Source: a virus
Taxonomy: Duplodnaviria; Heunggongvirae; Uroviricota; Caudoviricetes
Reading direction: 5' to 3' (one strand)
IMG/VR virus record: IMGVR_UViG_2684622669_000009
Location: 1-8,380 of that record
DNA length: 8,380 bases
The notes under the pieces were generated by a model. The model was not told the origin of the DNA. It searched no databases and saw only the letters and a program-made list of their open reading frames with translations. Below are positions 1 through 8,380 of the stretch, in pieces; positions within the stretch are counted from its first letter, which is position 1; each line of letters opens with the position of its first letter. Made by a program: the position numbers and the translations under genes.

Positions 1-232
1 CCAATTTATCCCTCAGGATCCTAAAGCGGTACTTTGGCGTCCAGACTATGGGATATTTGCAACGCCAATATACATGTGATGAACTTCTGTAAAGCCCCAT
101 GTCAGTTTGTTTCCTTTTACTTGTGGTGAGTAAGCAGAGATATTCCGACATGGGCATTCTTCAGGCTATAGCCTTACAGGATCAATCACCACCTCCCCAG
201 GAGGTGGTTTAGGGATAACAACAAAAAAACCC

Positions 233-256
233 GCAGTTACGCGGGCTTAGAGGTAC
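233..256 (-). terminator. Intrinsic (rho-independent) terminator downstream of the lysis cassette
   Basis: Stem cccgc (240-244) / gcggg (251-255) with a 6-nt loop; on the minus strand it is followed by a run of 7 T (plus-strand A-run 233-239). Lies about 165 nt downstream of the Rz stop. Confidence 0.6.
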
Positions 257-420
257 TTTACTGCTTTTACGTACAGGCTGTTGCCAGACGCGAAATCATT
301 CCCACTCAATTATTTACGACAACCATAACCAATTGAGTGATAACATTTTTCCAAAACCTCATTTTTCCCATACCGTTTTATATACCGTCACCGGAAATCA
401 GTACCATGAAAAATGCCATG

Positions 421-903
421 CTATCTGGTCAGGGTGTCGTACTGTTTTTCACAGACTCTTCCGGCTTCGGCTGCCCGGTCAGCATACTCTGCCAGTTGTC
501 TGTTTCTCTCGAGAGATTTGCTGAGCAAGTCGGCAAGCAAAACTCCGGTGTCTGCGGCTGACGCCCCAGCGCCGACAATGGCGTTATACTGCCTGAGCTG
601 CTCACGGATGGCAACGAGCTGTTGCTGCAACCGGCCAGCGCGAGCGGCAGCATCAAGAGCATCATTGCGCGCCTGGTCGATCCTTTGCTGAGCTTCACGT
701 TCATTGGTAGCTTTCTCCTGTTCGTAGTGCTGACGAACTATCTCATCTTCGGCTTTGCGATCTTCCTTCGCCTGCGCATACCCGGCTTCGTACTGACGAC
801 TGCCGTATGCATTCCAGGCTACAACTCCTGATATGACCAGAACAGCAAGCATCGCCATGATAACCAACTGTTTACTGTATGCTTTTGCGAATGCCCAGAT
901 CAT
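421..903 (-). CDS. Rz: Rz-like i-spanin (inner-membrane spanin subunit)
   Basis: 160 aa; N-terminal transmembrane segment (LVIMAMLAVLVISGVVAW) followed by a long charged, Q/A/E/R-rich predicted coiled coil. Its ATG overlaps the endolysin stop as ATGA (900-903), indicating translational coupling; it contains the embedded Rz1 frame. Confidence 0.85.
   Translation of the reverse strand: MIWAFAKAYSKQLVIMAMLAVLVISGVVAWNAYGSRQYEAGYAQAKEDRKAEDEIVRQHYEQEKATNEREAQQRIDQARNDALDAAARAGRLQQQLVAIREQLRQYNAIVGAGASAADTGVLLADLLSKSLERNRQLAEYADRAAEAGRVCEKQYDTLTR
429..704 (-). CDS. Rz1: Rz1-like o-spanin (outer-membrane lipoprotein), embedded out of frame inside Rz
   Basis: 91-aa ORF lying wholly inside the Rz ORF in another frame. 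N-terminus MNVKLSKGSTRR + hydrophobic AMMLLMLPLA + lipobox LAG|C is a typical lipoprotein signal peptide; the mature part is short and proline-rich as in lambda Rz1. AGGAGA Shine-Dalgarno about 9 nt upstream of the ATG at 704. Start could instead be the internal Met at 665 or 662. Confidence 0.75.
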   Translation of the reverse strand: MNVKLSKGSTRRAMMLLMLPLALAGCSNSSLPSVSSSGSITPLSALGRQPQTPEFCLPTCSANLSRETDNWQSMLTGQPKPEESVKNSTTP

Positions 904-1529
904 ACCGCCAGCACCTTACTGGCAGTGATGTACCGCGCGCGTCTGTCGTCGATTCCGTTCCTGCCACCATTGATAATCAGAGTTACACGTACAATATCTC
1001 CGGTATACTTCATGCAGCCTTTACTGGAGAAGAACCACGCCGCGCTACGAGCCGCGTATTCGTCCTGCGCCAGCAGTTCAGGACTCTCCAGCAGGTCAAC
1101 TTTCAGGCCGTTTCCGCAGTCACGATAGTTATTCAAACCGGTAATCTGGATAAGTCCGCGTCCTCGGTAATTCCAGCCATCACCAGGGGCATTGTTCCCC
1201 ATGCGTTTGCTGTACACCAGATTTGCAATCGCGCGCTGGCGCTCTAGTGGCAATGGTGGTTCACCAGCACGGCGACCCAGTGCATTAGCCTGTCCTTGGG
1301 TGAGACGCCCAGCCCGAACGAAGTTAGCCAGTCCGGTGACGCTGTAGTTGAAATTCTCCTGCAACCGGGTGAGGCCACCAGACTCATGCCCGACCTGAGC
1401 AATAAACATTGCTTGATCTTCGGCTTTGCTGATACCAAACTCTTTCATCGCAGAAGTTATATGCGAGAACCAGCGTGCAGCAAGCACCTCGCTAATACCA
1501 GCAGCTAGCTGGAATTGTTTAATCTCCAT
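900..1529 (-). CDS. Phage endolysin, glycoside hydrolase family 19 (chitinase-like lysozyme)
   Basis: 209 aa carrying the motifs I associate with GH19 phage endolysins: AQVGHESGG, PGDGWNYRGRGLIQITGLNNY, SPELLAQ, SAAWFF, INGGRNGIDDRR. Sits between holin-like genes and Rz/Rz1. Confidence 0.88.
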   Translation of the reverse strand: MEIKQFQLAAGISEVLAARWFSHITSAMKEFGISKAEDQAMFIAQVGHESGGLTRLQENFNYSVTGLANFVRAGRLTQGQANALGRRAGEPPLPLERQRAIANLVYSKRMGNNAPGDGWNYRGRGLIQITGLNNYRDCGNGLKVDLLESPELLAQDEYAARSAAWFFSSKGCMKYTGDIVRVTLIINGGRNGIDDRRARYITASKVLAV

Positions 1530-1830
1530 GTTTAAATCTCGTTATTTTGAAAATCTGAACGACGTTACCGCGCGTTTTAATAACCGCAGCAAGCATGACA
1601 GCGTTGATAATGACCTCAGATAAATCCACAGCCATTGGCGTGCGTAACCAGATTGCATAAACAACACGAACTGGAATACTGGCCGCAGCAACAATCAGGA
1701 AATAAGCAATCCACCCACCCCATCTTCGGTGTTGGGATCCGTTACGCTGGAAAGTGACAACGCGAATTGCTATGCCAGTACAAATAACCGCATTGGTGAT
1801 CAGCAAAAAAAGCTCATGAGTTACCATCAT
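1519..1830 (-). CDS. Holin-like small membrane protein (holin or antiholin) of the lysis cassette
   Basis: 103 aa with 2-3 predicted TM helices and a charged C-terminal tail (KTRGNVVQIFKITRFKHGD). GGAG-type Shine-Dalgarno upstream of the ATG at 1830. Overlaps the endolysin start by 11 nt and the upstream membrane-protein gene by 17 nt. Function is from position and topology, not recognised homology. Confidence 0.6.
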   Translation of the reverse strand: MMVTHELFLLITNAVICTGIAIRVVTFQRNGSQHRRWGGWIAYFLIVAAASIPVRVVYAIWLRTPMAVDLSEVIINAVMLAAVIKTRGNVVQIFKITRFKHGD

Positions 1831-2218
1831 CTTTTCTCCCCGGAATTAACTCGCGTGGATTATCTGAACGGTGATAGAGCCATATACCAATACGCACAGC
1901 GACAATTGCTGATACAAATGCACCGGCAGAAAAGACGACTCCTTTTTCGAATGATTCCTGCGTGATTGTTGGAATCAGGCTGGCTATGCCGATAAGAATT
2001 AATGCTGCTGGCTTGTAGAAAAGAAGACCACATAGAAAACTTAGTATCGATAAAAGAACACGACGACGAACAGGATACTCTACCGCTGAGGTAACAAAAA
2101 TTACCGCGCCCGCTAGTGCACCTAAAGCAACTTCTGGCGGCACACCAGCGACCACAGACATTAGCGCGCTCATGCTAAGCCCCTGATTCAGCGACCCTGT
2201 AGTTAATGTGTGCGACAT
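1814..2218 (-). CDS. Holin-like membrane protein (3 predicted TM helices), first gene of the lysis cassette
   Basis: About 134 aa from the ATG at 2216-2218 (GGTGG Shine-Dalgarno 5 nt upstream); the ORF track's start at 2227 is a GTG with no Shine-Dalgarno. Three hydrophobic segments and a charged C-terminus (YHRSDNPRELIPGRKDDGNS). Assigned by position and topology only. Confidence 0.6.
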   Translation of the reverse strand: MSHTLTTGSLNQGLSMSALMSVVAGVPPEVALGALAGAVIFVTSAVEYPVRRRVLLSILSFLCGLLFYKPAALILIGIASLIPTITQESFEKGVVFSAGAFVSAIVAVRIGIWLYHRSDNPRELIPGRKDDGNS

Positions 2219-2317
2219 AGAGACCACCGTTTAATGTGCATAAAGTCACCCCCCTTAGATGATGAGTCCATCATACACAATAAACCATATTGGGTTCAAA
2301 GAATCATAAAAATGCTC

Positions 2318-2347
2318 TTAACGAAATTACCTTAAAGGTGATATGAT
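2318..2347 (+). promoter_or_regulatory. Candidate sigma70 promoter for the acyltransferase gene
   Basis: TTAACG (2318-2323), 18-nt spacer, TATGAT (2342-2347), about 30 nt upstream of the ATG at 2378, in the AT-rich divergent intergenic region. Motif-level guess only. Confidence 0.3.
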
Positions 2348-2377
2348 AAATAAAATGATTCATGGTAGATATATAAA

Positions 2378-3472
2378 ATGTTCATTACTAACACTGATGT
2401 TTTTACCTTTCTTTTCTTAGCTATATCATTAATAGCGGCTATTTTTGTCAAAAAAATAATCCCATCAACCGTAATAAATGTACATAATGACACAACCTTA
2501 GAAGGTTTAAGAGGCATTGCATGCTTATTTGTATTTATAAATCATGCTTCATATAGCATTCATCACATCGGAATACAAAATTGGCAAATGATGGGTGATT
2601 CACCATATACCGGGAGAATGGGAGCTTTCGGAGTGGAGATATTTTTCTGTTTGACAGGGTACTTGTTTGCAAAAAAGATTCGCAAAGGAGATATAGACTT
2701 GTCATTTTTTGAAAAAAGAATCAGGAGGCTTGCTCCTGCATATATATTTGTATCATTTGTAGTTTTTATATATTTCGTATTTATGAACTATAATGTTATT
2801 CGTGGTTACTACGATATATCGGCTTTGATCCAACAAATTTTCGGATTCGGTTTCTTTGGGAATAGAATATCTGTAAACGGTATGGTGGATACATCATTGA
2901 ATGCTGTTGTGTGGACGCTTCCTTATGAATGGAAGTTTTATGCAATAGTCCCCTTCGTAGCGGCTATTTATAAGCTAAGAAGGCCTATCCCTCTACTTAT
3001 CGCATTTGGAGTAGCGACTGTTTGCATTGACTATTGGTCGAAAATGTTCTTGTGGGGGTTTTTCGTAACCGGATTCATTGCTTCATTCGTTGGTATTTTA
3101 GAAAATAGATATCTTAAGTATATCTCATATTACATAATGCTATTCCTATTTGCATATGCATTTAAGGGATCATTTGATATTCATGGTTTCCAAATGTTTG
3201 TCGTAGTATCTTTATTTTTCATAACATTTATTGCGGCAAGACCTAAGATATTCTCCATAGGAGTATTTGTTTACCTTGGAACTATAAGCTATAGCATTTA
3301 TCTACTACATCAGGTAGTTACAACGGTTTTCATGAAATTAATCTCTGGGGTAATCGATCTACTTACCATAAATATGTATGAATACTTAATGGTCTGCATC
3401 ATACCAATATCACTTACAATTTACTTATCATCTATTAGTTACAATAAAATAGAGAAAAAATTCATCAGATAA
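2378..3472 (+). CDS. Acyltransferase family 3 integral membrane protein; probable O-antigen / surface-polysaccharide O-acetyltransferase (lysogenic conversion gene)
   Basis: 364 aa, hydrophobic throughout (about 10 TM helices), with AT3-type motifs LEGLRGIACLFVFINH, FGVEIFFCLTGYL and SYSIYLLHQ. Markedly AT-rich compared with its neighbours (estimated by eye at roughly 30% GC). Opposite strand to the flanking phage genes. Confidence 0.85.
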   Translation: MFITNTDVFTFLFLAISLIAAIFVKKIIPSTVINVHNDTTLEGLRGIACLFVFINHASYSIHHIGIQNWQMMGDSPYTGRMGAFGVEIFFCLTGYLFAKKIRKGDIDLSFFEKRIRRLAPAYIFVSFVVFIYFVFMNYNVIRGYYDISALIQQIFGFGFFGNRISVNGMVDTSLNAVVWTLPYEWKFYAIVPFVAAIYKLRRPIPLLIAFGVATVCIDYWSKMFLWGFFVTGFIASFVGILENRYLKYISYYIMLFLFAYAFKGSFDIHGFQMFVVVSLFFITFIAARPKIFSIGVFVYLGTISYSIYLLHQVVTTVFMKLISGVIDLLTINMYEYLMVCIIPISLTIYLSSISYNKIEKKFIR

Positions 3473-3475
3473 ATA

Positions 3476-3507
3476 ATATTGGAGGGTTACTACCTCCAAT
3501 ATGTTTT
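3476..3507. terminator. Bidirectional terminator hairpin between the convergent acyltransferase and tailspike genes
   Basis: Perfect 10-bp stem atattggagg (3476-3485) / cctccaatat (3493-3502) with a 7-nt loop, followed by GTTTT on the plus strand and an A/T-rich stretch on the minus strand. Sits 4 nt after the acyltransferase stop and 13 nt after the tailspike stop. Confidence 0.7.
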
Positions 3508-3519
3508 GACTGCACTGTT

Positions 3520-5742
3520 TCAGCCGTTCGAGATTTTACCAGATATCCTAAATCTTAGCGCTCCAGATTTGATGTAATTGTATGTGAGGAAAGTTCTTGT
3601 GCCATCAGATGCCACGGCATAGAACTGAATCTTTGTGAAGTCTGTAGCTCCTGTAGGAATAAATCCAATAACATCGACAGTTCCTGCTGGTAATGCATTC
3701 CCAAGCGCTGTCCTGACCTCTATCTCGCATCCTGCCCCTGGATAAAAACCAAGCCCTCTGGGAAGGGTGATTGTGATATTTCCTGTACCGCCTGTTGTTC
3801 CTGTAACATTTATACTTACATGCAAATCAACATGCTCACCATCCCTCCTTGCAGTATATGTGCCAGTTTGTGTTACAGCTGTAGTATCATCGAAACCGAT
3901 ACTTCCAGTTAAGGCCGCATTAACCTGTAGTTCAGATTTAAATCCGCATATATTATTTCTCCACGGAATCGTTGGTTTATCACCATCCCATGTGATGGGT
4001 TGCGATGAAAAATGAGTTGTTTTATTACCAAGAAATTTTAAATTAAACAAGTTGTTATTTATATCGCCAACAAGATAAGCAGCATAAAAAGGTAGCCCTC
4101 CAGTAACAACCTGTTCATTGTGAGAAGTTACAACAGCATCGTGTATAGTATTGCTGGTTGAGCGAATCACAAACCCATAACCACCATTATCCATCGTTGC
4201 GCCAGAATCTGGATCTAATTTTGCAACGCTATCAGCATATGGTCTATAAAGTGTATGCCCACCAGATATCAATTCAAAACCGATTAACATTTGCCTGTTA
4301 GGATATAAATCATCTGATGTTTTAGGATGTCCCCATGGATGAGGATCTACAAGAGTATTCGATCCGGTACCAGAAATGCGAATGCCTATTGGATAATCTA
4401 TCGTTATAGGGTTTACAAAATGGCTATCACCAGTGCGAATCCACAATCCAACTACCGACTTGCTTTCCCATTTCATAATTCCAAAGCAACTATGCATAAT
4501 TGCGATTTCATAACCTATTGAAGGAATACCACCAATATCTGCCCCGCCTCTTAGCATCCCCCACGTTTCCATCTGACCTACCGTAACACCAGCTATATGC
4601 GTCATCAGAACACCAATTGCATCAACATGTTGGTAATATACGGTTCCCCAGTCAGTATTCTGCGTATGTCGTATGTGAATTCGTGGAATATAGGTACGCT
4701 TATCGCTATATGTGGTCGTTGGTGACATAATGTGATAGACAGCCTTATAGCTATTTCCTGCGGCATCTACTGTTTGGAAATCACCAGTTGGATCTGCCCA
4801 TATAACACCAGTCTGCAATACGCTAAGCCCTGCCAGATGCTTAATTGATGATTTAACCCGATAGACATTTGGCAGCCAAACTGTTTTGTTATTCTCATAA
4901 GCATAGTCATACGCATCCTGAATCATCACAGCCCAGTCAGTTTCTCCTGGATGATTTGCATAGAACTGCTCAGGTGTAACAAACTGCGAACGCGCAAATA
5001 GATCGTTTAAATCTGTTTGCACTGTACCGCTGGACATCGTGCCTATCAAACAACTTCCTGTTGGCTTCGCTAGTTCTATGAGAACATCAGCAGCAGAACC
5101 AGATTCTGGTAGTAGCATGATTGGGTTACCATTATCATCCATGCCTACAATTTTGTTTTTTCTCAACTCAACTGGTGGTAACTGCGGGATCATTTCTGCC
5201 GTGCGTAACGTTCTGCTAAAGAGAAGATCCGTATGCGAAGTGTTTCCAGCGCTAAGTGAGTCAGCATAATTCTTTGTCGCTGCATCCTGAGGGCGAATAG
5301 GGTCTCTTAAGTTTCTAATGTAGTTGTTTAGTGCGTCGTAATAATTAGCCACGAACGACGGCTTTCGCAGAACAAGGCTAAACCAACTACGCACTTGCTG
5401 GATCAGCATCGTCAGCTTATCGAACGCGTCTTCATGCACCTCAGCGAAAAACTTTCCCTGATTGCGCAGATCAGTTTCCTGCGTAACCGGTAGCTCTCGT
5501 GATATAGAAATCTGATAACCGTTAGCCAACGCCTTCGACAGAATTACATTACCGCCGTTATATCCTCCAGCTCCGGTAACTGTATAATCAGTATCAAGAG
5601 TCAGCACAGCAATATTTTCGTTAAGGTCAGAGACCTGAACAACCAAGTCGGATTTTTTGAAAATACGGAAGGTATACGGAAATGATGTCGTAACACCGTT
5701 ACCGGTGTATTCGTTGTGGTCAACTTCGGTTGAGACCGTCAT
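3520..5742 (-). CDS. Tailspike / tail fiber protein with putative polysaccharide depolymerase (beta-helix) receptor-binding domain
   Basis: 740 aa. The N-terminal ~150 aa (YTGNGVTTSFPYTFRIFKKSDLVV...LTLDTDYTV) follow the pattern of the T7 gp17 N-terminal particle-attachment domain. A downstream segment TPEQFYANHPGETDWAVMIQDAYDYAYENNKTVWLPNVYRV matches the signature at the start of pectate-lyase-type beta-helix tailspikes. Gly/Thr/Ser-rich C-terminus. GGAGA Shine-Dalgarno 6 nt before the ATG at 5742. Confidence 0.88.
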   Translation of the reverse strand: MTVSTEVDHNEYTGNGVTTSFPYTFRIFKKSDLVVQVSDLNENIAVLTLDTDYTVTGAGGYNGGNVILSKALANGYQISISRELPVTQETDLRNQGKFFAEVHEDAFDKLTMLIQQVRSWFSLVLRKPSFVANYYDALNNYIRNLRDPIRPQDAATKNYADSLSAGNTSHTDLLFSRTLRTAEMIPQLPPVELRKNKIVGMDDNGNPIMLLPESGSAADVLIELAKPTGSCLIGTMSSGTVQTDLNDLFARSQFVTPEQFYANHPGETDWAVMIQDAYDYAYENNKTVWLPNVYRVKSSIKHLAGLSVLQTGVIWADPTGDFQTVDAAGNSYKAVYHIMSPTTTYSDKRTYIPRIHIRHTQNTDWGTVYYQHVDAIGVLMTHIAGVTVGQMETWGMLRGGADIGGIPSIGYEIAIMHSCFGIMKWESKSVVGLWIRTGDSHFVNPITIDYPIGIRISGTGSNTLVDPHPWGHPKTSDDLYPNRQMLIGFELISGGHTLYRPYADSVAKLDPDSGATMDNGGYGFVIRSTSNTIHDAVVTSHNEQVVTGGLPFYAAYLVGDINNNLFNLKFLGNKTTHFSSQPITWDGDKPTIPWRNNICGFKSELQVNAALTGSIGFDDTTAVTQTGTYTARRDGEHVDLHVSINVTGTTGGTGNITITLPRGLGFYPGAGCEIEVRTALGNALPAGTVDVIGFIPTGATDFTKIQFYAVASDGTRTFLTYNYIKSGALRFRISGKISNG

Positions 5743-5898
5743 GTTAAATCTCCAGATAGTCGCAGCACCCGTTGCGCCGCATATCCGGTTATTCTATTAC
5801 CTGAAAAACCATATATGGATAGGTAACCCATAAATACGAACAGATATTACCTTTCAGGTAATTTGCAAAACGTGCTGGATAGCAAACAAATTATTTGA

Positions 5899-5918
5899 TA
5901 CTGTATATTCATACAGTT
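5899..5918 (+). promoter_or_regulatory. LexA (SOS) box overlapping the putative promoter of the 85-aa gene / Bro-N operon
   Basis: TACTGTATATTCATACAGTT matches the E. coli LexA consensus TACTGTATATATATACAGTA at 17 of 20 positions, with the CTGT-N8-ACAG core intact. It lies 20 nt upstream of the ATG at 5938, with a possible -10 TATATT (5904-5909) inside the box. Confidence 0.6.
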
Positions 5919-5937
5919 ATTGCATGGAGAAGATAAG

Positions 5938-6195
5938 ATGCAGCAGTATCACTATCCACTGGAAGACGGATTTACCGAAAGGATTCACACGCCGGGAGGC
6001 GTCAGGTCACTGGTGGAGGGATCGCACTTGATGAAATTACTCCGGGATCTCGATAAGGATGGATTTAATGTCGATGGCCCACTTACCGAACTGACTGCAC
6101 TGATTAACTACGTCACCAGCTCACAGATGTCTATGCAGGAGCTGCAAACACATCTCGACTATTGTGCCGAACAATTACGAAAGCAAACCAGATAA
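5938..6195 (+). CDS. Small protein (85 aa) paralogous to the C-terminal domain of the downstream Bro-N antirepressor; candidate SOS-induced antirepressor or modulator
   Basis: ATG at 5938 preceded by GGAGAAG. Aligns over its whole length with the last ~78 residues of the Bro-N protein (shared YxxPLxxG[FY]xxxIH[ST]PxGV...SxLMxLL...DGxxVxG...ELT...QTHxxY). The ORF-track start at 5920 is a TTG; the ATG with a Shine-Dalgarno is preferred. Confidence 0.7.
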   Translation: MQQYHYPLEDGFTERIHTPGGVRSLVEGSHLMKLLRDLDKDGFNVDGPLTELTALINYVTSSQMSMQELQTHLDYCAEQLRKQTR

Positions 6196-6333
6196 GGTTT
6201 GCAATTACCAAGCGGAGTGCTTATATTTACCTTTGCGGTAAATTTACATCGCACTCCTCTTGTGCCATAGTGATCAGGCACTGGCAAAATCCAGTGCCGG
6301 GATTGGCGTCCCGGATTACTAAAAGGCGCATTC

Positions 6334-6353
6334 ACCGCGCAAGCGGTTTTTTT
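6334..6353 (+). terminator. Candidate intrinsic terminator / attenuator between the 85-aa gene and the Bro-N gene
   Basis: 5-bp stem accgc / gcggt with a GCAA tetraloop, followed by a run of 7 T (6347-6353). The short stem suggests partial termination. Confidence 0.45.
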
Positions 6354-6510
6354 ATGCGTATAGCACGGTCACATTCGTATTATGGTGGGCTGTGTGGGGG
6401 CACCGAAAGGTGCGCCGGGTCCTTTTAGCCGGTTACGCCAACCCTGCACAGTTCACCACCAACCGATTGGCGTCGGTAGTGGTGATTAACCAGACTAAAA
6501 GGTAACCACT

Positions 6511-7197
6511 ATGACTGCTAACGTAACCCCATCTGTTTTTCATTTTGAATCAGAAGCAACCATTCGAGCCATTGTTATTGATGGAAATCCTTGGTTTGTT
6601 GCCAAAGACGTTATTAAAGCTCTTCAACTGACAAACCCCACTATGTCAATAAAATCTCTTGATGATGATGAAAGGGCTAAATTTAACTTAGGCCGTCAAG
6701 GCGAAACCAATATTATCAACGAGTCAGGCCTCTACACACTGATCCTCCGCTGCCGCGATGCGGTGACACCAGGCACTATCCCCTACCGCTTTCGTAAATG
6801 GGTTACAGGTGAGGTTCTTCCTCAGATCCGCCGCACCGGAAGTTACATTAAAAACTCGCTCCCGCAGGAAGAACGCATAAAGATGGTTGCCGACCAGGTA
6901 GCCAACGCCACAGCATCAGCAGTGATGCAGGCAATGAAGATAGAGAACAAAACCTACAGCGCCCCACTGAAGCCCGGCTACCGCAGTCTGATTCATTCTC
7001 CGTCTGGTGTTCTCGGCTTGACGGAGAACTCACTGCTGATGAATCTGCTGAACCGGTTACAGGAAGACGGGCACGACGTATCGGGCGCGGCGGCGGAGCT
7101 GACCACCATGTTCTGCTACATCGTCGGTGTGAGCAAATGCCTGCGTGATATCCAGACACACGCGGAGTACATCAACGACAAAGCAGGGTTCTTCTGA
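6511..7197 (+). CDS. Bro-N domain phage antirepressor-like protein
   Basis: 228 aa. N-terminal ~110 aa fit the Bro-N pattern (FHFESEATIRAIVIDGNPWFVAKDVIKALQL...ESGLYTLILRCRD). The C-terminal ~78 aa are paralogous to the upstream 85-aa protein. Confidence 0.85.
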   Translation: MTANVTPSVFHFESEATIRAIVIDGNPWFVAKDVIKALQLTNPTMSIKSLDDDERAKFNLGRQGETNIINESGLYTLILRCRDAVTPGTIPYRFRKWVTGEVLPQIRRTGSYIKNSLPQEERIKMVADQVANATASAVMQAMKIENKTYSAPLKPGYRSLIHSPSGVLGLTENSLLMNLLNRLQEDGHDVSGAAAELTTMFCYIVGVSKCLRDIQTHAEYINDKAGFF

Positions 7198-7204
7198 CGG
7201 CGGC

Positions 7205-7223
7205 GGCACAGGGATGTGCCTTT
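7205..7223 (+). terminator. Weak candidate terminator hairpin after the Bro-N gene
   Basis: Stem ggcaca (7205-7210) / tgtgcc (7215-7220) with a GGGA loop, followed by only TTT then AAA. A weak terminator at best. Confidence 0.3.
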
Positions 7224-7313
7224 AAATAATTCTGTACAGATTGCAGGTGAATAGCTTACTATTACCTCACGGGTGATCCATAGCGATTAGGCACCGATAC
7301 AGGAGGAGCCCAC

Positions 7314-7346
7314 ATGAGAAAATTTGACGAGTACGAAGGCGTTTAA
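7314..7346 (+). CDS. Mini-ORF (10 codons, MRKFDEYEGV) with a strong Shine-Dalgarno; candidate leader peptide
   Basis: AGGAGG (7301-7306) lies 7 nt upstream of the ATG at 7314; stop TAA at 7344-7346. An in-frame stop just upstream rules out a longer ORF. A hairpin follows 18 nt downstream. Tiny ORFs are often chance, so confidence is low. Confidence 0.25.
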   Translation: MRKFDEYEGV

Positions 7347-7364
7347 CATTCGGATAGTTTAATG

Positions 7365-7387
7365 ACGGGGCCATTAGGCCCCGTTTT
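7365..7387 (+). terminator. GC-rich hairpin (terminator or attenuator) immediately upstream of the 179-aa gene
   Basis: Perfect 8-bp stem acggggcc (7365-7372) / ggccccgt (7377-7384) with a 4-nt loop, followed by a short T-run (TTT then CAT). The downstream gene's Shine-Dalgarno starts only 8 nt after the hairpin, so the hairpin must lie in that gene's 5' leader unless the gene is read through from upstream. Confidence 0.45.
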
Positions 7388-7405
7388 CATGTCTGGAGAC
7401 AGTTT

Positions 7406-7945
7406 GTGTTAAGTGAAGAAATGCAATTTGCCATGGCTGTAGCTCAAATCGTAAGTGCAGTCGCGGTTTCGCTTGGCTTGTTCATAGCTATCGCTACTAT
7501 TATTTATAATGTAAATACAGCGAGAAAAGTACACACTTCAGTATTCCTTGGTGAAAGCAGGTTTGATGTAGATTATAAGAAAGGCCTATCTACTATGCGC
7601 CGCATTCACGAATCGAACAAATCATTCCGCTCTTATATGTATCCAAGCAATGGGCAGGCTGATCTTACGGATGAAGAAAAGACAGAGAAGAGAGAAATAA
7701 TTTACTGTCTAGGTTTCTACGAACGCATGGCTGTGAGCGTGAAGCGGAAAACTTATGATGAGACCATGATTAAGGAAGTATTTTACAGCTCCGTTGTAAA
7801 TAACTATCAGATTGCGCTACCTCTTATACAAGCCATTAGAGAAAAAGAAAACATAAACACATATTTTAAAGAATATGAATGGTTGGCCACACGATGGAAG
7901 GATTGCCCATTGAAGGATAAATCCCCGTGGTACAAGTTTTGGTAA
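7406..7945 (+). CDS. Membrane-anchored protein of unknown function (179 aa); candidate superinfection-exclusion / abortive-infection effector
   Basis: GTG start at 7406 with GGAGA 6 nt upstream (alternative ATG at 7421). One N-terminal TM helix (FAMAVAQIVSAVAVSLGLFIAIATIIYNV) then a ~140-aa charged soluble domain rich in K/E/Y. Lower GC than its neighbours (estimated by eye at roughly 40%). Followed directly by a strong terminator. I recognise no family for it. Confidence 0.7.
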   Translation: MLSEEMQFAMAVAQIVSAVAVSLGLFIAIATIIYNVNTARKVHTSVFLGESRFDVDYKKGLSTMRRIHESNKSFRSYMYPSNGQADLTDEEKTEKREIIYCLGFYERMAVSVKRKTYDETMIKEVFYSSVVNNYQIALPLIQAIREKENINTYFKEYEWLATRWKDCPLKDKSPWYKFW

Positions 7946-7966
7946 GCCCGCGCTGCGGGCTTTTTT
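7946..7966 (+). terminator. Intrinsic terminator after the 179-aa gene
   Basis: Stem gcccgc (7946-7951) / gcgggc (7955-7960) with a 3-nt loop, followed by a run of 6 T (7961-7966). Begins one nucleotide after the TAA stop. Confidence 0.75.
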
Positions 7967-8038
7967 GTGGACGAAACAAAAGTCAGTGCTACACTCATTG
8001 ACGCCACATTGAGGTGGCTTATAGATGGAAATTTCACA

Positions 8039-8200
8039 ATGAAAAAAGCATTTGCTGCACTGTTCGTTTTGTTGTCTCTGGTAGCTTCAACTCAGGCTTT
8101 TGCCGGTCGTTGTCAGCACGACAGCGATACTGCTGCTGACGGCTCCCGCTGCGGTGGGCGTTCTGCGGACTCCCGCCCGGGCGGCGGTGGCATTCGTTAA
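8039..8200 (+). CDS. Possible small secreted peptide (53 aa) with an N-terminal signal peptide
   Basis: ATG at 8039. MKKAFAALFVLLSLVASTQAFA looks like a Sec signal peptide with an AFA cleavage motif; the predicted mature part (~31 aa, Gly/Ser/Arg-rich, two Cys) is low-complexity. No clear Shine-Dalgarno, GC-rich region with ORFs in several frames, and a 5-codon upstream ORF (8025-8042) overlaps the start as ATGA. May be spurious. Confidence 0.3.
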   Translation: MKKAFAALFVLLSLVASTQAFAGRCQHDSDTAADGSRCGGRSADSRPGGGGIR

Positions 8201-8222
8201 AAACAAGGCCGCGAAAGCGGCC
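8197..8222 (-). terminator. Intrinsic terminator on the minus strand, downstream of the partial minus-strand gene
   Basis: Perfect 6-bp stem ggccgc (8207-8212) / gcggcc (8217-8222) with a 4-nt loop; on the minus strand it is followed by TTGTTTTTAA (plus 8197-8206). Sits 10 nt after the candidate minus-strand stop at 8232-8234. Confidence 0.6.
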
Positions 8223-8231
8223 TGTGACATG

Positions 8232-8380
8232 TCACGTCCCTTTTCTGAATGATATCCATTCGAAAAATGATGACATTCCACCGCAGACAACAGCAAAGAT
8301 GATCCCACCAAAGAAGAGAATGCCAGCCTGCCACCACTCCCACCGCCATACATCCACAGCGCCAACCATACCAACAATCG
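8232..8380 (-). CDS. 3' end of a minus-strand gene for a hydrophobic, Trp-rich small or membrane protein; partial, continues beyond the window
   Basis: Hand translation of the minus strand in the frame that stops at 8232-8234 gives ...IVGMVGAVDVWRWEWWQAGILFFGGIIFAVVCGGMSSFFEWISFRKGT*, which ends cleanly just before the minus-strand terminator. The overlapping ORF-track frame (8087..8377) would run through that hairpin and is low-complexity. A complete 46-aa protein from the ATG at 8367-8369 is also possible. Confidence 0.3.
   Translation of the reverse strand, partial: IVGMVGAVDVWRWEWWQAGILFFGGIIFAVVCGGMSSFFEWISFRKGT

Follow-up and report, generated by a model that had tools for sequence, protein, structure and literature searches.

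Does the acyltransferase gene of an Escherichia coli prophage, set antisense between its tailspike gene and its lysis cassette, alter the very receptor that the tailspike recognises? The locus is contained in a stretch of 8,380 nucleotides, positions 1 to 8,380 of IMG/VR record IMGVR_UViG_2684622669_000009, which was analysed as a whole and is called the window here, and the gene encodes a 364-residue protein of the acyltransferase-3 (AT3) family. A sequence-only reading, made from the letters of the window without database searches, had proposed that the prophage modifies the receptor of its own tailspike. We think this probably correct, and put at roughly 0.7 the probability that the AT3 protein is a serotype-conversion enzyme that acetylates the O-antigen bound by the tailspike and so masks the receptor.

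The identity of its flanks, 87-92% at the DNA level to Escherichia phages phiV10, TL-2011b, HEMP4 and phiv142-3 and about 80% to Salmonella phages epsilon15 and SPN1S, assigns the window to an epsilon15-like (Uetakevirus) prophage of E. coli, of which it is the right-hand end. The sequence reported as attP of phiV10 and epsilon15, ATTGAGTGGGAATGATT (PMC9782041), is found as an att core at window positions 294-310. Several E. coli draft genomes contain near-identical copies of the prophage (99.84% over 293-8380), adjoining yfgI-yfgH-yfgG-pdeF-ppx-ppk.

The acyltransferase and its extra helix

The open reading frame (ORF) at 2378-3472 matches Pfam PF01757 (Acyl_transf_3) with an E-value of 2.2e-28 and 99.7 bits against a cutoff of 31, residues 41-350 covering profile positions 4-324 of 326, and it matches PHROG 3333, "O-acetyltransferase," with an E-value of 9e-41. 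Both motifs described as essential in AT3 proteins, R/K-X10-H and RXXR (PMC9558356), are present: R45-X10-H56 lies in the first canonical helix, and R114-I-R-R117 in the loop that follows. Ten residues that are invariant in an alignment of 41 sequences (R45, H56, F89, F90, R114, R117, W179, E184, H311, and E359) are all found here. The Pfam match reaches residue 350 of 364 and no second domain is present; with no fused SGNH/GDSL domain, the protein is therefore an "AT3-only" enzyme, like the Oac proteins of Shigella phages. The genes that occupy the equivalent position in phages Tyrion and PAS61 are longer (624 and 618 amino acids).

An AlphaFold model built on the same alignment is all-helical (predicted local distance difference test score [pLDDT] 88.8, predicted template modelling score 0.89) and, with the hydropathy peaks, describes a polytopic membrane protein, the norm for AT3 proteins being about 10 helices. 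Ahead of the canonical first helix (residues 39-58), which bears R45-X10-H56, the model places a helix at residues 5-27 in a block with pLDDT 85-96, and residues 6-24 have a Kyte-Doolittle hydropathy of 2.33. This hydrophobic segment is kept in 39 of the 41 aligned members of the subfamily, distant Bacteroidota included, and is therefore a trait of the subfamily and not the product of a mis-called start codon. By the model, then, the protein is an intact inner-membrane enzyme with one transmembrane helix more than the canonical AT3 fold. On these points, the AT3 homology and the additional N-terminal helix, the sequence-only reading has held up fully. A Foldseek search of the Protein Data Bank (PDB) with the model returned nothing informative: all E-values exceeded 0.09, and the best related entry, human HGSNAT, ranked 28th with a template modelling (TM) score of 0.30. 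The structure thus adds to the Pfam assignment only its confirmation of the N-terminal helix. No NCBIfam model matched the AT3 protein or the tailspike, and PADLOC had no match for the AT3 gene or the neighbouring accessory genes.

The ratio of nonsynonymous to synonymous substitution rates (dN/dS) is 0.09 against alleles 87% and 82% identical, which indicates strong purifying selection on the gene. A protein 100% identical to that of the window is encoded in at least three other E. coli assemblies, and the window allele occurs in at least four draft assemblies. Its DNA was not found at megablast sensitivity in any of 5,426 complete E. coli genomes; it is therefore a rare allele.

A conversion slot and an exchangeable cassette

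The sequence-only reading correctly placed the AT3 gene on the strand opposite to the tailspike and lysis genes, and regarded it as an inserted moron. The second term proves misleading. Comparison among relatives indicates that the gene occupies the standard, ancestral, allele-swapping serotype-conversion slot of the genus, bounded in an epsilon15-like genome by the tailspike gene on one side and the holin-like/holin/endolysin/Rz cassette on the other, and is not a one-off insertion. The slot is filled in most members of the genus (its contents were compared in seven relatives). In epsilon15 it holds the classical conversion genes, which run antisense to the late genes with an annotated terminator behind them, and encode an alpha-polymerase inhibitor and a protein of the O-antigen polymerase family. 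In phiV10 it holds an antisense oac gene, flanked by the tail fibre gene and the lysis cassette and annotated for O-antigen acetylation and superinfection immunity; when cloned, oac modifies the O157 antigen, confers immunity and abolishes plaque formation by phiV10 (PMC11854483, PMC9558356). Tyrion, SPN1S and SPNIS2 carry antisense acetylase or GtrA genes there, PAS61 and TL-2011b carry an acetylase on the strand of the tailspike gene, and the slot of the K1-capsule-specific phage ZX5 is empty. Since the same position is used for conversion genes across the genus, the locus is an instance of a well-described architecture. The arrangement is already well known, and only the gene variant found in the window is uncharacterised.

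Two members of the genus provide the closest comparisons. The phiV10 oac gene (PhiV10p26) shares with the window AT3 gene the slot, the antisense orientation, the AT3-only domain content and an upstream operator and extended -10 element, but its product has 338 residues and lacks the additional N-terminal helix, the receptor-binding domains of the two tailspikes are unrelated, and phiV10 has no hairpin between the convergent genes. Genes 21 and 22 of epsilon15 occupy the same slot, are likewise antisense to the late genes, are separated from the tailspike gene by an annotated rho-independent terminator, and are preceded by the same conserved intergenic DNA; they differ in kind, encoding an O-antigen polymerase-family protein and a small polymerase inhibitor and no acetyltransferase.

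What is exchanged at this position is larger than the AT3 gene. DNA similarity to phiV10 ends at window position 2347, with the last base of the -10 hexamer ahead of the AT3 gene, and resumes at 5084, close to tailspike residue 220, a domain junction. The N-terminal part of the tailspike is 80% identical to residues 1-227 of the phiV10 tail fibre and matches PHROG 1640 and related tail families, while the receptor-binding domain is found elsewhere fused to N termini of the P22 head-binding, Tail_spike_N, and epsilon15 types. Measured against the closest allele, the synonymous divergence (dS) of the AT3 gene (0.78) resembles that of the receptor-binding part (0.95), while Rz stands at 0.30. The similarity breaks, a common G+C content at third codon positions (GC3, 0.31-0.32) and the similar dS together argue that the AT3 gene, the hairpin that follows it and the receptor-binding domain are a natural unit of exchange, which by these measures is about 2348-5083.

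The composition of the gene fits the same picture. Its G+C content (GC) is 0.331 and its GC3 0.318, against a GC of 0.460 for the rest of the window, so that it does differ from its neighbours as a moron would; the description of the gene as far more AT-rich than everything around it was nonetheless slightly overstated. The AT3 gene is not alone in its low GC3: the tailspike gene has a GC3 of 0.311 in its receptor-binding part (0.441 in the N-terminal part), and the upstream intergenic region has a GC of 0.321. Nor is the promoter-like site part of the exchanged unit: the conserved extended -10 sits in backbone DNA, outside the exchanged cassette. The hairpin is conserved in position.

That hairpin, ATATTGGAGG-gttacta-CCTCCAATAT, lies within the 47-nucleotide gap between the two convergent stop codons; its 10-bp stem is perfect and includes 4 G-C pairs, and its loop has 7 nucleotides. 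A terminator scan picked it on both strands, and its surroundings fold at -19.0 and -18.4 kcal/mol (z of -5.1 and -3.8 against shuffles) on the two. The U-tracts are weak, GUUUUG on one strand and UAUUAUUUAU on the other, and so, of the perfect 10-bp bidirectional terminator claimed for this site, the stem and its bidirectionality stand, but we describe it as terminator-like only. At the equivalent position a strong hairpin of unrelated sequence is present in eight of nine related loci, the exception being phiV10.

The constant partner of the gene is a tailspike. Relationships among AT3 sequences place the window protein in a subfamily separate from, and not orthologous to, phiV10 Oac. Members examined in their genome context came from E. 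coli (87, 82, 51, and 34% identity), Citrobacter freundii (62%), Proteus terrae (43%), Salmonella (42%), Hafnia paralvei (38%) and Morganella (31%), and each of the 10 genome loci lies in a prophage and has the AT3 gene converging on one for a tailspike. The tailspike-linked subfamily thus spans six host genera (Escherichia, Salmonella, Citrobacter, Proteus, Hafnia, and Morganella), and its carriers include epsilon15-like podoviruses, siphovirus-type prophages with GpJ and tape-measure genes, and one myovirus-type prophage with baseplate genes. Of the 21 IMG/VR loci that reach 30% identity and extend far enough downstream, 17 have a convergent ORF of 580 amino acids or more; all 10 such ORFs that were sampled are tail spike or fibre proteins by PHROG, with varied N-terminal adaptors. 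These uncharacterised genes (27-87% identity) share with that of the window the N-terminal helix and the convergence with a tailspike gene, and differ from it in phage backbone and in receptor-binding domain. Convergence maintained across morphotypes supports a link between the AT3 protein and the receptor of the tailspike and, with the precedents in the slot, favours the proposal that the prophage modifies that receptor.

A related tailspike was also observed with a different enzyme. E. coli 23CRST032 (NZ_AP045802.1, 1494332-1497397) carries a P22-like prophage at tRNA-Arg (argW) whose tailspike has a receptor-binding domain 74% identical to that of the window, and the tailspike gene is convergent with a gene for a 343-residue AT3 protein of unrelated lineage. 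Two acetyltransferase lineages are thus paired with one receptor-binding type. A receptor-binding domain 69% identical is found in a phage that has no AT3 gene.

Substrate and timing

From the enzyme family, its conserved catalytic motifs, the purifying selection, the slot, the constant pairing with a tailspike and the mosaic boundaries of the cassette, we infer the substrate of the AT3 protein, its phenotype and its pattern of expression. The gene would be transcribed rightward from the extended -10 promoter upstream of it, transcription stopping at the hairpin. Its product would insert into the inner membrane and pass acetyl groups from cytoplasmic acetyl-CoA, by way of R45-X10-H56 and R114-X-X-R117, to the O-antigen repeat at the periplasmic face of the membrane. 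Once acetylated, the O-antigen should no longer be bound or cleaved by the beta-helix tailspike of the prophage, and the lysogen would acquire a changed serotype and resistance to reinfection by phages with the same spike. The models for this scheme are phiV10 Oac and Sf6 Oac. Sf6 Oac and Sf101 OacB are AT3-only proteins, and the O-antigen acetylation hinders the phages' own tailspike endorhamnosidase (PMC9558356). They share RXXR and R/K-X10-H with the window protein; in these P22-like phages, however, oac lies between the tailspike gene and int, and no extra N-terminal helix has been reported for Oac or OacB.

If the scheme is correct, the prophage alters the O-antigen of its E. coli host, with consequences for serotyping, for phage susceptibility (and hence phage therapy and phage-based detection) and possibly for immune recognition. 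Since members of the subfamily nearly always have a convergent tailspike gene as neighbour, whatever the phage morphotype, a genome could reveal at once a spike and the enzyme that counters it, providing matched pairs for receptor studies. Current understanding is not overturned; the value for further work lies in the tailspike-linked AT3 subfamily and in two conserved regulatory motifs, described below.

The tailspike itself is consistent with this role. Pfam recognises no domain over its C-terminal 520 residues, and a sequence search of the PDB matched only the N-terminal adaptor. An AlphaFold model of moderate quality (pLDDT 70.9) contains many short beta-strands, and its best Foldseek matches are Det7 gp208 (E-value 1.5e-9, TM score 0.40-0.47) and the HK620 tailspike. 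The depolymerase-like domain noticed in the sequence-only reading is in this way supported, and the model suggests a beta-helix of the depolymerase type.

Several observations weigh against our reading. The first concerns descent. phiV10 Oac and the window protein show no significant pairwise similarity (BLASTP E-value 0.52), an hhalign comparison gave a probability of 73% over 87 N-terminal columns only, and a tblastn search with the AT3 protein among 50,697 phage records found a single match, Sf101 OacB, at 28% identity over 52% of the protein. The likeness to characterised phage O-acetyltransferases, which had been drawn on in proposing the function, is therefore real at the level of the family but includes no ortholog, and function is transferred from family and context. 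The second concerns specificity. AT3 proteins also acylate capsule, enterobacterial common antigen, peptidoglycan and other glycans (PMC9558356), the structural matches of the receptor-binding model extend to Klebsiella and Acinetobacter capsule depolymerases, and O-antigen over capsule as the tailspike target is a tentative choice, the model being of moderate quality. Third, strict co-variation of AT3 protein and receptor-binding domain was considered and rejected: the domain 74% identical to that of the window accompanies an unrelated AT3 protein, and the Salmonella and Proteus AT3 proteins, 42-43% identical, accompany unrelated domains. We have therefore narrowed the claim to an AT3 gene that is "always next to a tailspike gene." Finally, a putative repressor operator overlaps the AT3 promoter, which at face value argues against strong expression in a lysogen.

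This last point leads to the alternative that survives best, although we regard it as unlikely. The AT3 gene may be directly under the control of the immunity repressor: expression would come mainly as a burst, directly upon infection or when the prophage is induced, and in the stable lysogen it would be weak or absent. In that case the enzyme would serve chiefly to keep adsorbing phage off infected or lysing cells and their debris, and not to maintain a standing conversion. The best rightward site in the divergent region, and the only good one, scores 9 of 12 consensus matches in a promoter scan and has the TG of an extended -10; TGnTAnnnT is kept in every relative with an antisense conversion gene, and it is from consensus and conservation that we propose this site as the AT3 promoter. 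Its spacer and extended -10 are overlapped by a 17-bp palindrome, ATTACCTTAAAGGTGAT, with one mismatch to ATTACC-N5-GGTAAT, the consensus of four sites annotated as repressor binding sites in the epsilon15 RefSeq record. Three operator-like sites occur in the window against 0.02 expected by chance; the assignment draws on that annotation and on motif statistics. The motif lies upstream of every antisense conversion gene in the genus and is absent from ZX5 (empty slot) and from PAS61 and TL-2011b (co-directional genes), so that it goes with the conversion-gene promoter and not with the lysis promoter. The other two sites precede rightward accessory genes, one of them antirepressor-like and equipped with a LexA box, a type expected to be repressed in lysogens.

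Against such tight repression, epsilon15 lysogens retain antigen 15. The phiV10 prophage has an equivalent operator-like site, yet it is reported to prevent phiV10 binding (PMC11854483). In most of the phages one half-site carries a mismatch (GGTGAT), so occupancy of the putative operator may be partial. The conserved pair of operator-like and promoter-like sites is a lead on the timing of conversion.

Two more far-reaching readings may be considered. In one, the AT3 gene, hairpin and receptor-binding domain are a self-contained "recognise-and-mask" cassette that moves as a unit between podo-, sipho- and myo-type prophages of the Enterobacterales into a site downstream of a backbone promoter. 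In the other, that promoter is directly gated by the immunity repressor through the operator overlapping its extended -10, so that acetylation would peak within minutes of infection or upon induction and be held down in the stable lysogen. We offer these as speculation, with the odds clearly against them.

The assignment of the AT3 protein to the O-antigen also has to be weighed against other substrates. The enzyme might acylate another envelope glycan, such as K-antigen or capsule, colanic acid, enterobacterial common antigen or the lipopolysaccharide core, the tailspike targeting that glycan or none in particular. AT3-only proteins act on many substrates (PMC9558356), and some Uetakeviruses do target capsule, ZX5 having an endosialidase tail protein (PMC9782041). 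Below Det7 gp208 and HK620 in the Foldseek ranking of the receptor-binding model come the Phi92 colanidase and the capsule depolymerases, and tailspike residues 180-319 have a weak match to a PHROG for "colanic acid degradation." Nevertheless, the top structural matches are O-antigen tailspikes, the characterised or named genes of the slot act on O-antigen (the epsilon15 polymerase and inhibitor, phiV10 Oac, SPN1S GtrA), and it is the K1-specific phage, ZX5, whose slot is empty. Another glycan as substrate thus seems to us quite improbable.

That the AT3 gene is carried along passively or is in decay, without function for phage or host, is very hard to credit: its atypical composition and the fragmented acetylase genes in the slots of SPN1S and SPNIS2 would fit, but the 364-codon ORF is intact with all invariant motifs, its dN/dS is low, identical proteins recur in other assemblies, and both the promoter-like site and the hairpin are conserved.

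A putative lysis promoter and neighbouring elements

The features discussed above and those of the lysis cassette are collected in Table 1.

Table 1. Positions of genes, gene parts and putative regulatory sites in the window
Feature	Position	Strand	Remarks
Rz/Rz1 spanins	421-903	-	
GH19 endolysin	900-1529	-	
Phage_holin_3_7 holin	1519-1830	-	
First lysis-cassette gene, holin-like membrane protein, 134 aa	1814-2218	-	Pfam Phage_holin_8, E 1.5e-12; PHROG 198 holin; divergent from AT3 gene
Lysis genes together	421-2218	-	
Leftward promoter-like site facing lysis cassette	2270-2299	-	TTGAAC, 18-nt spacer, TATGAT; promoter scan
Rightward promoter-like site before AT3 gene	2318-2347	+	TTAACG, 18-nt spacer, TATGAT; extended -10 TGaTATGAT at 2339-2347
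Operator-like palindrome	2326-2342	.	Overlaps AT3 promoter spacer and extended -10; one mismatch to ATTACC-N5-GGTAAT
AT3 gene, 364 aa	2378-3472	+	Pfam PF01757, PHROG 3333; putative O-antigen O-acetyltransferase
Codons for extra N-terminal transmembrane helix, residues 5-27	2390-2458	+	
Hairpin, terminator-like in both directions	3476-3502		Between convergent AT3 and tailspike genes
Tailspike gene, 740 aa	3520-5742	-	
Tailspike receptor-binding C-terminal part, about residues 221-740	3520-5082	-	Exchangeable cassette with AT3 gene
Tailspike particle-binding N-terminal part	5083-5742	-	Backbone, not cassette

The sequence-only reading counted the divergent region from position 2228. For the first lysis-cassette gene, ATG 2218 is a likelier start than GTG 2227, because the gene is called as 134 amino acids in every relative; the intergenic region would then be 2219-2377. 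The same reading held that the lysis cassette needs a promoter of its own because of the insertion. A conserved promoter-like motif is indeed present: the leftward -10 is conserved in all relatives (TATAAT in phiV10), and the leftward promoter-like site is overlapped by a palindrome, AAACCATATTGGGTT, at 2282-2296. The motif is also found where the slot is empty or its gene co-directional, so the AT3 gene is not the reason for its existence.

The palindrome in the -35 and spacer region of the leftward site reads CCATATATGGTTT in relatives and CCCAATATGGTTT in the window. In 9-10 of 12 loci the CCATATATGGTTT motif stands 71-78 nucleotides upstream of the start codons of the tailspike gene and of the first lysis gene alike, and the window has five matches against 0.34 expected. 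It is a candidate for a common late-promoter or late-gene regulator site of the genus, and as such a lead on late-gene activation. These findings support the view of the sequence-only reading that the lysis cassette has a promoter of its own. On this view the cassette would be a separate leftward transcription unit, driven by a conserved late-type promoter (the palindrome and TATGAT) of the same kind as that before the tailspike gene. The palindromic motif AAACCATATATGG(TTT) was observed at 5806-5821, before the tailspike gene, and at 2282-2296, before the lysis genes, with a weaker third copy at 6185-6200 at the end of a small antirepressor-like ORF.

As an alternative to a dedicated promoter, the lysis genes could be expressed by read-through of the tailspike transcript followed by RNase III processing, as is implied by the epsilon15 record, which annotates an RNase III site in the lysis-cassette leader. 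The leader (2205-2300, minus strand) is nearly invariant across the genus and can form a stem of about 20 bp that covers the -10 hexamer and the Shine-Dalgarno region. In the RNAalifold prediction of this stem, only 1 of 21 pairs shows a compensatory change; because the sequences are nearly invariant, covariation is scarcely informative here.

The two remaining operator-like sites lie beyond the tailspike gene. A perfect palindrome, ATTACCTTTCAGGTAAT, at 5846-5862 and a near-consensus LexA box, TACTGTATATTCATACAGTT, at 5899-5918 precede a 91-residue ORF (5920-6195) whose product is 37% identical to the C terminus of the neighbouring Bro-N antirepressor-like protein. This ORF probably encodes a small antirepressor under dual control by repressor and LexA, a layout that reportedly resembles the Rep/Ant/LexA switch of phage SPC32H. 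The third site, ATTACCTCACGGGTGAT, at 7261-7277, precedes a DUF4760 gene (7406-7945, plus strand, GC 0.39), a rightward accessory gene among leftward late genes; PADLOC matched it to no defence system.

Directly upstream of the Bro-N antirepressor-like gene (6511-7197), two RNAs score in tandem above the Rfam gathering threshold on the plus strand, the isrK Hfq-binding small RNA (77.9 bits) at 6278-6353 and C4 antisense RNA (77.7 bits) at 6378-6463. Their position suggests that control of an antirepressor by antisense RNA, of the P1/P7 type, operates within this prophage.

Mobile elements adjoin or interrupt the region. Window positions 1-237 hold the terminal part of an IS200/IS605-family element, with 96-98% identity to copies that bear the annotation tnpA; this part abuts the ATTGAGTGGGAATGATT att core; other E. 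coli assemblies with near-identical prophages have the host yfgI gene at this place. Past the right end of the window, two relatives, L019 and L020, carry an IS3-family insertion sequence (HTH_Tnp_1 and rve domains) at 6074-7302, which separates the virion structural genes from the accessory-gene block. These two prophages are otherwise 99.8% identical, and a third is without the element.

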